Below are positions 37,234 through 55,989 of a stretch of DNA of 64,000 bases, piece after piece. The stretch comes from a virus. The notes beneath the pieces are model-generated. The model made no database searches, had not been told where the DNA came from, and worked only from the letters and a program-made list of their open reading frames with translations. The position numbers and the translations under genes are program-made. The number at the start of each line of letters is the position of its first letter. The first letter of the stretch is position 1. The stretch lies in the UHGV virus genome UHGV-1366603; one strand, given 5' to 3'.

Positions 37234-37258
37234 ACCCTATTGAAAAATATCTTAGATA

Positions 37259-37274
37259 TATATTACTTAGGTGA
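37259..37274 (+). promoter_or_regulatory. variant of the conserved promoter-like motif (ATATTAC-N4-GTGA)
   Basis: TATATTAC-TTAG-GTGA about 53 nt upstream of the 37327 start. Confidence 0.35.
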
Positions 37275-50603: not shown

Positions 50604-50647
50604 AGCCTGAGACCCACCGGGGTCTCAGGCTAACTCTTTTTTTATTT
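50604..50647. terminator. bidirectional terminator between convergent genes
   Basis: AGCCTGAGACCC-ACCG-GGGTCTCAGGCT followed by T-run. Confidence 0.65.
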
Positions 50648-52018
50648 CTGTAACGAACGAATCAGGAAGTAAAGCAGCAGCGCGTTACGCAGTGCAGCTA
50701 ACGCAGACTCGTGACGAATGTGGGTCTCTTTCGCGGCCAGTTTCTCAATACGAGAACGCAACGACAACACATACGGGTTAGGCGATTTCGACGCCTGGTA
50801 CAACGCCCGCATACGCTGTAATACCGTAACCGCATCGTTAAAGTTAATTCGATTGGTAACGATTTCGTCAAAAGCGTGGGACAACGTGTCTTCCATGATG
50901 CTGTTAACCTCATCACGTTTCTTCCCGATGGGGAGTCCTGCGATATACGTCAGCAACGTTTTCAGTGCCGCAGGTGACGCCTTCGGTACCATCTCCAGCA
51001 CCACACGCGCCAACTCTTCTTTGTACAAATTGTTGATATCGTAAGACGCATCAAACAGGTTCTGTTTTGCGATTTCCAACGCACCAACTTTGTCACGAAT
51101 CACCGACTGACCGTCTAACTCCACACGCGCAGACTGACTAACGACACGAGCGTTCTCACGACGTACACGGTCAAGCACTGCGTAGTAGTCTTTCACGGTT
51201 TGTTTCGTACGGGTGTTCAGGTCAGTGATATAACGCAACACCATATCCGGTGCATCAAACCGTTTTACCGCATCGTAGTTAGGGTATTCCGGGGAGCAGA
51301 AATACGTTGCACGTTCTGCCATGTGCAACCCCCAGTTCCCTAAACGACGAATATCGAATTTCATCGACAGCATCGAGTACGCGGCTTCAGCGGCAGGTAA
51401 ATCTACCGGCTTCGGGAAGAAGTGGTAGTAAATACTGGAGTAAAATTTGAACTGAAGAATCGTCACCAGGTCAATAGCCGCAGCGAGAATCTCTTTGTCA
51501 CCGAACTTCGGAATCATCAGGTGCAGTAAATACACAATGGTCAGGTTATACGTGTCACCCGCTACCTGCCAATCGGTATTGATGGAATGCGACTCTTTAA
51601 TCAGCTCTGACAGGTAGTCTTCGTCGATGTTAATCACCTCATCGAACAGACGGTTACGGTCAGAATCGAAAAAACGAATGCTGTGGACACCGAGGAGGTT
51701 CGACCCTAACCACTCGACGTTACCTTCACGAGAGAGTATCCCGCTTACGTAGTGGCGCAGCTTAGACGCCAGCTTGCGATCAATCACGAGTTTGTTAAAC
51801 ACGCTGTCAAACGCTTTACGTAAACGGTCGTCGTGACGGGCTTCGTGAGCGACGGAGAATCCCATCGGTACGTAGCCACCAAAACCGTAGTCGTAGTACA
51901 AACCCGGTGAGGTTTCCGCGTCGTCGAAATACGGGTCGTGACCGAACGATTCCTGAGCAACGCGGGTTCCGGTAGTTTGATAACAACCGGAGGTAAAATC
52001 ATAAACCAGTTCAGCCAT
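50642..52018 (-). CDS. hypothetical protein (458 aa)
   Basis: GAGGT RBS on minus strand. Confidence 0.5.
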   Translation of the reverse strand: MAELVYDFTSGCYQTTGTRVAQESFGHDPYFDDAETSPGLYYDYGFGGYVPMGFSVAHEARHDDRLRKAFDSVFNKLVIDRKLASKLRHYVSGILSREGNVEWLGSNLLGVHSIRFFDSDRNRLFDEVINIDEDYLSELIKESHSINTDWQVAGDTYNLTIVYLLHLMIPKFGDKEILAAAIDLVTILQFKFYSSIYYHFFPKPVDLPAAEAAYSMLSMKFDIRRLGNWGLHMAERATYFCSPEYPNYDAVKRFDAPDMVLRYITDLNTRTKQTVKDYYAVLDRVRRENARVVSQSARVELDGQSVIRDKVGALEIAKQNLFDASYDINNLYKEELARVVLEMVPKASPAALKTLLTYIAGLPIGKKRDEVNSIMEDTLSHAFDEIVTNRINFNDAVTVLQRMRALYQASKSPNPYVLSLRSRIEKLAAKETHIRHESALAALRNALLLYFLIRSLQK

Positions 52019-52090: not shown

Positions 52091-53215
52091 ATGAGAAATT
52101 ATCTGCGCAAACCCGCTTGGCACAAGATGTTGCGTGAAGGTACCATCGACCGCGAACAGCAAGTCAAGATGTGGGTGCTTCCTCACGGCGTAATTTGTGA
52201 CCTGGTCAGAGTCGGTGGGATGGACATCCTGCGTAACGGTACCTACGACGCCGTCAACTCGTTCTTAGCACGAGAGCTGGCGGAAGCAGGGTTACAAGGC
52301 GAGGTGTTATTTTACACCACCCGTGTTATCCCACAAACGCTGTCTAAGTGGTTAACGTACTGGCTGTCTAGTGACCCTGACGCATCAGACCCCGAACTGA
52401 GTTCGGTAACGATTACCACACTAGGCCAGTATCCCACGAAACCCTTACCGTTCCAGGTGAACGTTGTTGAGCCGCTAATCGTAAAAGCTGGTGACGTGTT
52501 TGACATGATTAAAGTCAAATCCCGTAACCAAGCCGTTTCCCAGTTCATCATCGAAACGGGTGAACACACATTCCGATTAGAACCTGTCCGTAAAACCGAT
52601 GCGACGCTTCTGGCCGTAACGGATTACGGAATCGTTTGTCGTTCTTCCGAAGGACATACCTTCCTGTGCACGATACTCTCACGACGTATTCAGGCACAGT
52701 TAGAGCACTACAAACTTTCCCTGGAAGACATCGTCGGTACGACGTTACGTATCGAATACACGATGTACACGGAAGGGAATCGGCTGTGTAATTACAAGTC
52801 CCCTATCGCTTACCGAGCGTTAGCGCTGGACAACATGGGAGACTGGGTCTCAACGACATACGAAGGGCCTTCCCCCTTCAAAACCATTCCAACACAACGA
52901 CCGGCGTTGTTGACCGTCACCCGCTGTAACCGTGCCGAGATTTTCGAGGAAGAGGGTGTGATTTCCGGTTACGAACGTGAAACAGGGTTAACGCTTTTCC
53001 GCTTCCGACGGGGTGCGGAGTATGGTCGCTACGCAGCGGTGTTCGAACGAGACGGTAAGCAAGAAACCTGGCTTTTCGAATCGGATTTCTCCGTTGAGGT
53101 GATTGACCCTGAGGGCTTTGTGGCTTCAGTGGGGAGTCAGATTTTCTACGCCACGGGCTACAGCCTGTTGGACGTAAAACTGCACTACCCTCAGAAAGAA
53201 CAGGTCTGTCTGTAA
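52091..53215 (+). CDS. hypothetical protein (375 aa)
   Basis: ATG 52091 with AAAGGAG RBS preferred over the upstream ORF-track start. Confidence 0.5.
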   Translation: MRNYLRKPAWHKMLREGTIDREQQVKMWVLPHGVICDLVRVGGMDILRNGTYDAVNSFLARELAEAGLQGEVLFYTTRVIPQTLSKWLTYWLSSDPDASDPELSSVTITTLGQYPTKPLPFQVNVVEPLIVKAGDVFDMIKVKSRNQAVSQFIIETGEHTFRLEPVRKTDATLLAVTDYGIVCRSSEGHTFLCTILSRRIQAQLEHYKLSLEDIVGTTLRIEYTMYTEGNRLCNYKSPIAYRALALDNMGDWVSTTYEGPSPFKTIPTQRPALLTVTRCNRAEIFEEEGVISGYERETGLTLFRFRRGAEYGRYAAVFERDGKQETWLFESDFSVEVIDPEGFVASVGSQIFYATGYSLLDVKLHYPQKEQVCL

Positions 53216-53223
53216 AAAATTAT

Positions 53224-53262
53224 CGGATGGCTTCGGCCATCCGTTTTTTTTTTATTTTTTTG
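53224..53262 (+). terminator. intrinsic terminator
   Basis: CGGATGGC-TTCG-GCCATCCG followed by T10. Confidence 0.7.
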
Positions 53263-53760
53263 CCAAAAAACCTTCGACCTCCTCAGAGCGATTCTAACGC
53301 ATTTTTAGGTCGAGGTGGTACGTTCGTATACCCTGGGCCAGTTTTTCTCGTTAGAGAGCTTCTCAGGAAGAATTTGACGGGGTTTTATTCCCTGTCGAAG
53401 AATTTATTTTACCCCAAACCGCAACAAACCCCAAAACCGGGTGCTGGGTTGTCTCTGGAAACCCTATCCGGTTGGTGATTTTTTAACCGGATTTCGTAAA
53501 ACGCTCTAGAAACGATTTTAACGCAGTTTTTACCCCTACCCAGTACACTTGGGTTACCTGACCCCGTTTAGCACGTTGTGGAGCGATTGAGAAAGCGTAC
53601 GACCCATTGCCGTGGGTGGGTGAGACCCGACCCTGCCACCCGACGGCCAGCCGCCGCGCCGATCAAAAAAACATTCACGCTTCGCGTACTAACGGATCAA
53701 GTGATTGGATCAACTTACTGAATCTTCACACACTGAAGATTCAGGTTGAGTAGTTATCTT

Positions 53761-54260
53761 GCTTGGTTTTTTAAATACTCTCGAGAGACCTCAAGTCTCT
53801 CGGATCGATCTTAAAAATTTAACTCTCTCAAAAACCTGATCTCAAGATCTCTTCCTTATACGCGTGTGCGTGCGCACACGTATAGTATAATATATTTATT
53901 TATAAATATATTATTCCTTTAGGATCAAAATAATAATACCTTTAGGTATTATTTAATTATATATTTTAATATATATTTATTTTAATAAATATAAATATAT
54001 TAAATAAATATATTAATAATATAATTATTATATATAATATATATTATATATAAATATATATAAAACGCGCGCGATCCTTATTATGAGATCTGATCTCGCT
54101 CTGACCCCCAGTGAGGGGGTGGGGATCGGTGAGCGGTATTTTCCGGAAAAACCGAAAATCGTACCCGGGGTAATTCGCCAGGGTAAAATCCCCACCTGGG
54201 GGATCGGGTAGGGGGTACCCTTCCGGGGGAGATCCTGAACACCTGACCAGGGGGTAAAAC
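53761..54260. other. gene-free AT-rich tract flanked by a GATC cluster, palindromes and G/C tracts; candidate replication origin or packaging/terminal region
   Basis: About 180 bp of near-pure A/T (53881-54060); 11 GATC sites counted in ~440 bp; inverted repeats such as GTGTGCG-TG-CGCACAC and AATAATACC-TTT-AGGTATTATT. Confidence 0.45.
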
Positions 54261-54299
54261 CCCATTCCCCTTTTTCGAACGTTAAAACCCTATGGTATG

Positions 54300-54912
54300 T
54301 TCGGAGGATTTGCGTGGGGTTGATTTACAACCACGAAGATTTTTCGGAGTTCAGGTATTACTGCTCACAGCTCAACACGATTACTGTCTGCGATGATTCA
54401 GCAGAGCTCGAACCCCCTGGTTGGTTATTGGCCAGGGGTGTTTTTTCAAGTGCATGGATTTTGGTTCACCGTGTACTGGGAAAAACAAAACGTTCGGCCT
54501 AACACTGGCGATTTGTTTTACTATGGGGTTTCCGTGACTTCGGATAAAAACCTCAGGGGTTGGTAAACCCCACGAATTCAGGTGCTCGGTACCGTTCCCG
54601 CGACTTACGAAGTTTGGGGAAAGCCGCGCTATCAGCGACGCGTGGCCGACATGAGAAAATCCGAGTGAACCGTGGCAGCCTCTGGGGGCGACGTTGGCGA
54701 GAGGTCCGTAGAACTTACCTGCGGGCAGCCGACGGTGGGATGCGTCCCCAGAGGTGCGGCCAGAATCCGAATTACGACGTTGCGTCGAAACAACCCTGCT
54801 CCAGGTAGCGCTGGCAGTGTGATGTCCTCTAGCTTGACGGCTCGCAAAGACGAGAGGGGTGCGTACTCCCGTTGAGAAACGCCGGTACGCAGCTGAATTA
54901 ATTTTTTACGGA
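54300..54912 (+). ncRNA. candidate structured non-coding RNA region (unclassified)
   Basis: GC-rich segment unlike flanking DNA; many nested inverted repeats; internal terminator-like hairpin at 54413-54446; only Arg-rich or TTG/GTG-start ORFs. Confidence 0.3.
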
Positions 54913-54955
54913 ATTTCCTGTTGGTGTGACACAAACCACGGCAGGAGATTTTAAT

Positions 54956-55288
54956 ATGGATTCCAAAGACGTTCCGAACATCGGTTCGAATGTCCCGTAC
55001 CGACTCGATGAATTGGGTAGGCTGCTAAAGGCACCCGAGAATTGGGGTTGTTATGATTCGTCGCTGCTAAACTGCATCGAGACAGTGACGGTGAACCATT
55101 GGCGAAACACAGAGCTTGTTACGGTTTGTGTTAAACTCACCGGTGGTCAGTTGGTTACTCACACCCCGTCTCCCAAGGAGCCGCACGTGGGTTATCGCCC
55201 TTACCTGTTCTCAGCGGTTCAGAAATGCTTACACAAAGCTATCATGAAATACGCCGAGCAATGCATGGCTACGTTCATCATGGATTGA
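54956..55288 (+). CDS. hypothetical protein (110 aa)
   Basis: ATG 54956 with AGGAGA RBS; upstream of the HslV-like gene. Confidence 0.5.
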   Translation: MDSKDVPNIGSNVPYRLDELGRLLKAPENWGCYDSSLLNCIETVTVNHWRNTELVTVCVKLTGGQLVTHTPSPKEPHVGYRPYLFSAVQKCLHKAIMKYAEQCMATFIMD

Positions 55289-55299
55289 GGTTCGCCTGA

Positions 55300-55800
55300 A
55301 TGACTACGATTGTTTTTGACGGAAAGACGTTAGCTTGCGATGGCCAAGTCACCGTGGAAGAGCGTAGTGCTGCCACGCAATACCGTAAGATTCACACGCC
55401 GCCTGAGGGTACGACGTGGAAGCTTTTGGGTGAAGACGTGAAAGCAATTGGTTTGGCAGGTGATGTCGCCGCATTGCAATCCGTGCGTCAAGAACTCACG
55501 CTTGAACGTTTCGGCGGTATCGAACGGGGTGGGGTTCGTTTTGAAACGACGTATCCCGAACAGATTGAATTTATCGTACTTGCTGTTTTGACAGACGGGC
55601 GCGTTATCGACGCCTCGAAGTGCAAAGACAACAAATACGCCAGTTACGTGTTTGTAGAACCGCCGTATGCGATAGGCTCAGGTGCTCACTATGCCCTGGG
55701 TGCATTAGGCGCAGGCGTTGACGCCCCCACTGCGGTGGAAGTGGCGAAACGTTATGACCTGTACAGCGGCGGTCAGACGCAAACGCTTAAGCTGTTTTGA
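55300..55800 (+). CDS. HslV-like (proteasome beta-type, Ntn-hydrolase) peptidase
   Basis: N-terminus MTTIVFDGK...ACDGQVT parallels E. coli HslV MTTIVSVRR...AGDGQAT; later YAIGSGAHYALGA parallels IAIGSGGPYAQAA; GAGG RBS. Confidence 0.65.
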   Translation: MTTIVFDGKTLACDGQVTVEERSAATQYRKIHTPPEGTTWKLLGEDVKAIGLAGDVAALQSVRQELTLERFGGIERGGVRFETTYPEQIEFIVLAVLTDGRVIDASKCKDNKYASYVFVEPPYAIGSGAHYALGALGAGVDAPTAVEVAKRYDLYSGGQTQTLKLF

Positions 55801-55809
55801 AGTATTTAG

Positions 55810-55882
55810 ACCATTGAAGTTAGAGGAATTAACACCCGACTAATAATCGGTTATTTCGCAGGTTCGAATCCTGCCATTGGTC
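55810..55882 (+). tRNA. tRNA-like gene, anticodon uncertain
   Basis: Canonical T-arm GCAGG-TTCGAAT-CCTGC; acceptor stem with one mismatch; D-stem GTTA/TAAC; 73 nt; anticodon loop register ambiguous. Confidence 0.4.
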
Positions 55883-55989
55883 GCCCAGATTAGAACAATC
55901 GAACAAGAGTTACAAACTCGTCAGCCTTCAACTGAGCGTCGGTTGTTCTGATAACTTCTGCTCTTGCTCACGGGTAGAAAGCTCCTTAA

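Follow-up and report, generated by a model that had tools for sequence, protein, structure and literature searches.

A predicted, uncatalogued structured RNA in a gene-free gap of SPN3US-like jumbo phages

The gene-free gap and its GC-rich segment

We examined a segment at positions 54300-54912 of a 64,000-nucleotide (nt) stretch of the virus genome UHGV-1366603 (hereafter the window), which an earlier note, made from the sequence without database searches, had described as GC-rich, highly structured and a candidate non-coding RNA. The source of the window is a jumbo phage that has not been cultivated and is a relative of Salmonella phage SPN3US; its 458-amino-acid (aa) virion protein (50642-52018) is 78-83% identical to the SPAsTU, Erwinia phage and SPN3US homologues, and over 53200-55296 the window shares 97% identity with a 224,831-bp IMG/VR contig. 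Megablast of the region against GenBank phages gave no match, and conserved patches were found only via sensitive blastn.

The segment lies in a gap without genes of 1.5-1.7 kb, which opens after a 385-aa open reading frame (ORF; end at 53215) or after a doubtful 83-aa ORF (end at 53478) and closes with the ATG at 54956. SPN3US, SPLA3, SPAsTU and pEa_SNUABM_29 have a similarly sized gap at the equivalent position, which in SPN3US runs across the arbitrarily chosen record start, and a shorter one, of ~1.1 kb, is found there in phiEaH2. The gap is syntenic across Seoulvirus, Erskinevirus, Wellingtonvirus and Machinavirus phages. Since the relatives share this gap, the segment is not a recent insert, and the idea that it was horizontally acquired is not supported by any of the relatives examined. 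ARAGORN placed a tRNA-Ile at 55809-55885, i.e., a tRNA gene within ~0.9 kb of the candidate RNA.

The features listed in the earlier note were all present, with small coordinate offsets. The GC content is 53.5%, a moderate rise over the 46.8% of the whole window, and the sharp contrast in composition arises from an AT tract just upstream (53880-54069) with 7.9% GC. The inverted repeat CCTCTGGGG was located at 54679-54687, 3 nt from the 54676-54684 given before, and its partner CCCCAGAGG at 54746-54754, which is 67 nt downstream from start to start instead of about 80. The inverted repeat GGGGTTGGTAAACCCC (54556-54571), the pair GGTGCGTAC (54858-54866) and GTACGCAGC (54885-54893), and the A/T-rich tail TGAATTAATTTTTTAC (at ~54894-54909) were likewise present, and a terminator scan recovered the terminator-like hairpin with its T-run (stem 54414-54438, then TGTTTTTTCA). 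When folded as RNA of the plus strand, 54300-54912 reached -236 kcal/mol (z = -5.67), with none of 20 shuffled sequences as stable, while the minus strand gave z = -1.22; for the 3′ two-thirds (54447-54912), the values were z = -3.21 and +0.22, respectively. This asymmetry between the strands was the first sign that the RNA is read from the plus strand.

No credible ORF is found in the segment, as had been proposed: the frames are short, with GTG or TTG starts or a high arginine content, and Pfam and PHROGs searches with its five ORFs returned no match. Among five close relatives, single-base insertions or deletions at ~54595, 54610 and 54788 break every frame on both strands, and the longest stop-free stretch switches strand and frame from clade to clade. 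Because the frames are broken in this way and the open ones shift between clades, Huxley gp278 and Parshik gp279, two hypothetical proteins that annotators placed across the homologous region, are probably spurious. A conserved protein encoded here, which would have argued against a non-coding RNA, was thus looked for and not found.

Conservation and covariation of the RNA family

Using sensitive blastn, we found the 3′ part of the segment in 54 GenBank phage records of Seoulvirus, Erskinevirus, Wellingtonvirus and Machinavirus, and a pattern search with the invariant core returned 16 IMG/VR stretches and 14 metagenome stretches, some of which overlap each other or the GenBank phages. Pooled, these loci represent 35 distinct sequences. 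In the annotated relatives examined, the family always lies within the same gene-free gap. Close relatives are 98-100% identical in the 3′ domain; from clade to clade, sequence similarity stops at GCUGA, as one would expect where a functional unit ends, which speaks for an autonomous RNA. Three CR5-like (Derbicusvirus) loci gave no match in the syntenic flank examined, and the start of the CR5 record is fully coding. So far, the RNA is restricted to SPN3US-like jumbo phages of enterobacteria. One 13.7-kb contig labeled as part of a Bacillota genome bin (JAEWFE010000254.1, locus L079) carries an RNA nearly identical to that of the window and is most likely a jumbo-phage contig in the wrong bin.

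The comparison with related jumbo phages that the earlier note had called for revealed strong conservation and strong covariation. A covariance model of the 3′ domain (R1), seeded with nine sequences and with the window's clade left out, matches 35 loci (E 5.5e-46 to 8.2e-19) and the window once, at 54770-54898 (86 bits, E 1.5e-22). Within this domain (alignment A4), 94.8% of cells are paired, and both sides have changed in 21 of the 34 pairs, amounting to 126 such cells; none of 500 shuffles gave the observed values, and shifting the partner by one to three columns left 34-45% paired. Two helices of the domain have been replaced almost wholly between clades, the 5′ strand of one of them reading GUCUGCG in SPN3US, GUACACGG in Huxley, CCCAGCG in locus L054 and CUGCUCCAG in the window. 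Similarly, a model of the central hairpin (R2) matches 33 loci including the window at 54668-54767 (E 1.8e-21 to 2.5e-4). Here (alignment A6), 90% of cells are paired and 16 of 26 pairs have changed on both sides, compared to no shuffle out of 500 at these values and 35-47% of cells paired in shifted controls. The helix CCUCUGGGG/CCCCAGAGG becomes GCCAGAG/CUCUGGC in SPN3US and CUUGGGAG/CUCCCCCAAG in Wellingtonvirus, with a G-U intermediate in locus L007. The long hairpin H0 was analyzed on a plain MAFFT alignment (A7, 13 sequences), in which 95.4% of the cells of its 15 pairs are paired and six pairs have changed on both sides; when H0 and part of the terminator-like hairpin T1 were tested as one structure, none of 500 shuffles matched the observed score or percentage paired. 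Over the three tests, shifted registers were 34-56% paired vs. 90-95% observed. Compensating changes beyond shuffled and shifted controls, the general hallmark of a functional structured RNA, are thus found in this family, and independent single-sequence folds of each clade give the same architecture.

G-U pairs are common in the family (14 of 25 distinct sequences have one at pair 143-174, and 16 at pair 8-18), and each would be a C-A mismatch on the opposite strand. The terminal loop is a GNRA tetraloop throughout (GAGA, GUGA, GCGA or GGGA). Together with the asymmetric folding, the frequency of G-U pairs and the GNRA loops point to an RNA of the plus strand rather than to a DNA element. What selection keeps is the pairing and not the sequence.

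Anatomy, natural variants and surroundings

The predicted RNA, whose span from ~54385 to 54898 on the plus strand (~0.5 kb) is supported by these data, is made up of the elements listed in Table 1. Three of its modules are backed by covariation: the 5′ module (T1, whose U-run pairs with a downstream A-run), the central long hairpin and the multi-helix 3′ domain.

Table 1. Elements of the predicted RNA and of its 3′ flank in the window
Element	Positions	Strand	Description
5′ hairpin	54387-54405	+	Small hairpin UCUGC...GCAGA, then conserved GAGCUC; just upstream of T1; provisional 5′ limit
T1	54414-54446	+	GC-rich hairpin 54414-54438, U-run 54441-54446; appearance of an intrinsic terminator
H0	54439-54487	+	Long hairpin; the U-run of T1 is its 5′ strand and pairs with a downstream A-run
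Conserved motif region	54488-54520	+	Holds conserved CCUAACAC (54498-54505); loop of a local hairpin or 5′ strand of a long-range helix
Variable middle	54521-54667	+	Hairpins 54524-54555, 54556-54571, 54581-54593, 54595-54621, 54623-54646
Central domain	54668-54767	+	Long irregular hairpin, closing UGGC/GCCA; contains helix CCUCUGGGG/CCCCAGAGG
Central apical stem	54704-54711/54719-54726	+	Conserved 7-nt loop AACUUAC 54712-54718
3′ domain	54770-54898	+	Universal core; hairpins 54775-54787, 54796-54817
Invariant part of 3′ domain	54833-54859	+	CUUGNCGGCUCG-loop-CGAGAGGGG, ~27 nt
Terminal hairpin of 3′ domain	54860-54891	+	GNRA loop 54874-54877, then GCUGAAU
Tail and spacer	54899-54955	+	A/T-rich tail AAUUUUUUAC, spacer with hairpin, AGGAG ribosome-binding site before ATG 54956

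At the 5′ end, the stems of the small hairpin differ between clades, being UCUGC/GCAGA in the window and Erskinevirus and CCCUG/CAGGG in SPAsTU (folds judged by eye). The stem of T1 has 11 pairs, six of them G-C, and is followed by TGTTTTTTCA, which is the sequence pattern of an intrinsic terminator. In all clades, a GC-rich hairpin of unrelated sequence stands directly 5′ of an invariant YUUUUUCGAG, followed by a hairpin and then by an A-rich return strand, and compensating changes in T1 are visible between the window and loci L008/L010. T1 thus resembles an intrinsic terminator in its GC-rich stem and U-run, kept in all clades with differing stems; unlike such a terminator, its U-run is also a strand of a covarying helix, and conserved structure continues for ~450 nt beyond it. 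The internal terminator described in the earlier note is therefore real as a hairpin with a U-run, but represents a conserved module within the element instead of a boundary between unrelated pieces.

Further downstream, the motif CUAACAC is kept in all clades but Wellingtonvirus, which lacks CCUAACAC as well as one hairpin of the 3′ domain. For the region around this motif, 54652-54667 is a candidate long-range partner, and both local hairpins (with differing stems) and the duplex are predicted. The variable middle measures 67-68 nt in Machinavirus vs. 171-202 nt elsewhere; it contains UUCAGGU (54577-54583), which is kept in all clades, and a hairpin (54556-54571) whose strands GGGGUU/AACCCC have become GGGAUU/AAUCCC in L008/L010. 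Two candidate helices that would close the ends of the RNA, CAGCC/GGCUG and UUCAG/CUGAA, were set aside: their bases are invariant, so that no covariation is possible, and CAGCC/GGCUG fails in the SPN3US group. Close relatives share 94-96% identity over the tail and spacer, including those with another ORF behind it, and the flank past GCUGA takes two conserved forms across clades, ...UUUAC or CCAAAUUC.

Several natural variants of the RNA occur. In Erwinia phage Kwan (locus L018, 2369-3002) and in Wellington (L031), a 634-bp HNH endonuclease cassette has taken the place of 21 nt in the 3′ domain, within its most variable peripheral hairpin, while the core is undisturbed; the HNH homing endonuclease cassette is also found in L024. 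A terminator-like hairpin stands just 5′ of the HNH ORF, and the 21 nt that are replaced are present in pEa_SNUABM_11. The window's clade is without this variable hairpin altogether. In pEa_SNUABM_6 (L035, ~1415-1566), the whole central domain is gone, apparently by deletion between two TAGCCCC repeats, but its 3′ domain is still present. Every lineage examined has kept the invariant 3′ core, whereas peripheral parts can be lost or can host an endonuclease gene.

The surroundings of the RNA have features of their own. The sequence between the AT tract and the RNA (54070-54384) is also structured on the plus strand (z -3.13 vs. -1.95 on the minus strand) and rich in G-runs, including a repeated GGGGATCGG; it is kept within the window's clade, is not recognizable in SPN3US, and may be either a 5′ part of the same transcript or a separate element. 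The 190-bp AT tract (53880-54069) is flanked by GATC sites, with 14 in the 601 bp of 53650-54250 vs. 1.4 expected at the window's rate. It holds two copies of CCTTTAGG, the equivalent place in Huxley having CCCGTAGGG and CCCTACGGG, and is directly followed by GATCCTTATTAYGAGATCTRATC, which the window and Machinavirus have in common. Upstream of the tract, at 53690-53880, lies a series of near-perfect palindromic hairpins, among them CTGAATCTTCA...TGAAGATTCAG, CGAGAGAC...GTCTCTCG, GATCTCAAGATC and TATACGCGTGTGCG...CGCACACGTATA. Many GenBank records and independent metagenome assemblies of 220-245 kb start or end in or beside the AT tract (window ~53930-54100), among them the starts of L008, L009, L039, L042 and L048 and the ends of the SPN3US record, and the tract either breaks assemblies or marks a physical genome end. 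The region 53650-54250 may be an origin, a packaging site, a control region or simply hard to assemble (GC skew was uninformative as an indicator of an origin), and it is a feature separate from the RNA. At the upstream edge of the gap, the gp003 homologue of relatives is followed by a gene for a 170-aa protein (SPN3US gp002), where the window has just the doubtful 83-aa ORF (53227-53478); the start of the 83-aa ORF falls inside a bidirectional terminator-like hairpin (53224-53243). The tRNA-Ile has the unusual anticodon AAT, and the syntenic tRNA in SPN3US, SPAsTU and others is tRNA-Trp(CCA).

Possible roles of the RNA and alternative explanations

We compared the RNA with known families using the 4227 models of Rfam 15, which we take to include GOLLD, ROOL, OLE, HEARO, RNase P, tmRNA, 6S, group I and II introns and riboswitches. 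At the gathering threshold, the whole window matched only the tRNA at 55810-55882. With E up to 10, the region 53000-55400 gave four weak matches (12-17 bits vs. cut-offs of 39-82), and six homologous loci gave no recurrent match over the element. ARAGORN found no tmRNA, only the tRNA-Ile. Thus, no catalogued family matched in the Rfam comparison that the earlier note had proposed, and full-text searches of the literature returned no description of this RNA and no RNA sequencing of SPN3US-like phages, so that it looks like an undescribed phage RNA. During early infection with phage phiKZ, no small RNA of the phage was confirmed by a differential RNA-sequencing study; for phiKZ-related giant phages, neither a regulatory nor a structural RNA encoded by the phage has been established (PMC8244752).

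In its size, its ornate fold, its association with phages and its closeness to a tRNA gene, the RNA most resembles ROOL and GOLLD, which are large, ornate and frequently encoded next to tRNA genes in phages or prophages (PMC5737381, PMC12286853). Like them, the RNA described here is several hundred nucleotides long, phage-borne and near a tRNA gene, has many covarying helices, and does not reveal its function through its sequence; unlike them, it contains a terminator-like module, and it shows no similarity to them in sequence or structure model (no Rfam 15 match at E = 10), which makes the resemblance one of kind and not of family.

Smaller or functionally defined phage and plasmid RNAs offer further comparisons. 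The tRNA gene cluster of phage T4 encodes the stable small RNAs species 1 and 2, which are likewise phage-encoded non-tRNA RNAs beside tRNA genes without an assigned function; our RNA is much larger and unrelated to them in sequence. ColE1 RNA II is a structured RNA proximal to an origin, and we compared the phi29 packaging RNA in the same way. Here too, the RNA is encoded near a putative origin or terminus (the AT tract with its GATC clusters), and its conserved hairpin loops could make loop-loop contacts; it differs in that the AT tract lies upstream of the RNA and not at its 3′ end and in lacking any sequence similarity.

The interpretation of the segment as a candidate non-coding RNA is supported by covariation, by the lack of a conserved protein and by the lack of a known Rfam family. 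We consider it likely that the segment is the gene for a predicted, uncatalogued structured RNA belonging to a family common to SPN3US-like jumbo phages, and we have high confidence that a genuine functional structured RNA is present. If so, we lean slightly towards an autonomous or trans-acting role over that of a cis-acting leader, because close relatives have exchanged the gene behind the RNA and yet are 98-100% identical in the RNA itself. The 110-aa ORF directly after the RNA (54956-55288) occupies a variable slot with a conserved start region: it is absent in L008, only 70% similar over 95 nt in L009 and L010, and missing in SPN3US. In relatives where it is absent or replaced, the HslV-like gene is 95-97% identical in DNA and the 3′ domain 98-100%. 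The gene right after the RNA is HslV-like in SPN3US and belongs to a different family in Huxley, Kwan and SPAsTU, so the RNA does not always precede one gene family related to a sensed signal, as a riboswitch or leader would. As an autonomous molecule, it might act in its own folded form, as a stable RNA or the scaffold of an RNA-protein complex, and bind a conserved partner via its invariant core and loops. It would be made early or constitutively from a control region beside the AT-rich tract, alongside the nearby tRNA genes, and could be co-transcribed with whichever gene follows.

A number of observations weigh against this interpretation. Two of the three covariation tests were performed on model-fitted alignments, which are biased towards the structure, and model-independent support was for this reason sought in single-sequence folds and in the plain MAFFT alignment; moreover, the sequences represent only about six clades, and many of the counted cells share ancestry. 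Since pEa_SNUABM_6 lacks the central domain and the RNA of Kwan and Wellington is interrupted by the 634-bp insertion, laboratory growth does not strictly depend on an intact RNA. No convincing promoter was found for the RNA, with no sigma-70-like site ahead of it on the plus strand, and its 5′ and 3′ ends are predicted only. In several relatives, the 3′ end is just 12-20 nt from the ribosome-binding site of the next gene, with no terminator between them, and the conserved spacer and downstream start region would fit a leader. With regard to promoters, the present phages use their own RNA polymerases, and the early promoters described for phiKZ-like phages have an AT-rich consensus with a G 6 nt later (PMC5312081). 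The sequence AAAAATATCTTAGATATATATTACTTAGGTG at 37243-37270 resembles this early type, and nothing similar immediately precedes the RNA; several conserved spots carry a TATG-type motif like that of the late promoters of phiKZ, which was dropped because a scan upstream of the window's long ORFs gave only three weak cases.

The main alternative, which we regard as possible though rather unlikely, is a very long structured 5′ leader acting in cis to stabilize, time or enhance translation of the gene behind it; T1 might then serve as an attenuator or insulate the gene from the RNA polymerase of the host. The embedded terminator-like hairpin in the 5′ part, the absence of a clear terminator between the RNA and the next ORF, and a ribosome-binding site 12-60 nt downstream are all consistent with a leader, and a spacer and start conserved at 94-96% despite a swapped ORF body is what would be expected of an expression platform before a variable slot. 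However, three or more independently covarying domains over 500 nt have been kept across four genera in front of differing genes, with no match to any riboswitch or leader family known; most of the structure lies downstream of T1, whereas a sensor normally precedes its terminator; and the endonuclease cassette of Kwan and Wellington, with its own terminator-like hairpin, would sever a leader from its gene. It is improbable that the element works as DNA, i.e., that it belongs to an origin of replication, a packaging site or a terminus of the genome, with hairpins that would form in single-stranded DNA or be bound by proteins. Although it adjoins the 7.9% GC tract with its GATC clusters, at which many records and independent contigs begin or end, and the SPN3US terminase gene is situated ~3.4 kb upstream of the start of the gap, such features belong to 53650-54250, and no GATC site occurs in 54250-54955. 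Furthermore, pairing in the segment is kept through G-U intermediates and the plus strand alone folds well, and GNRA loops and the complete turnover of helix sequences are marks of RNA and not of protein-binding sites in DNA.

Two further alternatives can be given even less credence. A degenerate or novel self-splicing intron or other mobile ribozyme is hinted at by the HNH cassette, which replaced 21 nt of a variable hairpin without touching the core, since homing endonuclease genes typically reside in peripheral loops of group I introns; but no host gene is interrupted, the flanks being non-coding in the window and in all annotated relatives, no intron model (and hence no catalytic core) is matched even at E = 10, and the element is fixed at a single locus and not scattered. 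This makes an intron very improbable. Close to negligible, in our view, is the chance that the segment encodes one or more small proteins, such as Huxley gp278 or Parshik gp279. Stop-free stretches of 85-158 codons and the annotation of a hypothetical protein in two GenBank records would favor such proteins; against them stand the longest open frame that differs in strand and frame among clades, the single-base indels separating close relatives, the absence of matches in Pfam or PHROGs, and substitutions that pair across helices with no spacing in threes.

One possible lead to a function comes from the heptaloop AACUUAC (54712-54718), the most conserved exposed element, which is presented on a covarying stem. 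It is exactly complementary to GUAAGUU, the heptaloop of helix 71 in 23S rRNA (Escherichia coli 1950-1956; L078); counted with both closing pairs, the match measures 9 nt, and in Huxley it measures 12 nt. In the ribosome, helix 71 sits where the two subunits meet and forms bridge B3. Early in infection, a loop-loop contact of seven pairs might thus anchor the RNA to free 50S subunits or prevent the subunits from joining, with the invariant 3′ core carrying a second activity or partner. However, we consider it a long shot that the RNA represents a new class of large phage RNAs directed at the host ribosome, because 9-nt matches to rRNA are no more frequent than in shuffled sequences: the conserved motifs have four such matches to E. 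coli rRNA vs. 1.4 expected (P = 0.09), and the whole RNA has 23 vs. 18.9 expected (P = 0.25), neither being a significant enrichment. No conserved partner for the AACUUAC loop was found inside the RNA, and GTAAGTT sites in the window showed no pattern near gene starts. Other 9-nt rRNA matches are GCCUAACAC, identical to 16S 46-54; ACCGUGGCA, complementary to 16S 1364-1372; and CGGAAAGAC, identical to 23S 2055-2063.

Large multi-domain RNAs with strong covariation are rare, and those whose function was later worked out have often proved to be ribozymes, parts of RNA-protein machines or components of higher-order assemblies. The present family occurs in phiKZ-related giant phages, which bring their own RNA polymerases, and direct testing is feasible, since SPN3US is cultivable with genetic tools and antisense knock-down has recently been shown in jumbo phages (PMC12571901). 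At the least, the RNA should be added to RNA family databases and the spurious hypothetical-protein annotations over the region removed.

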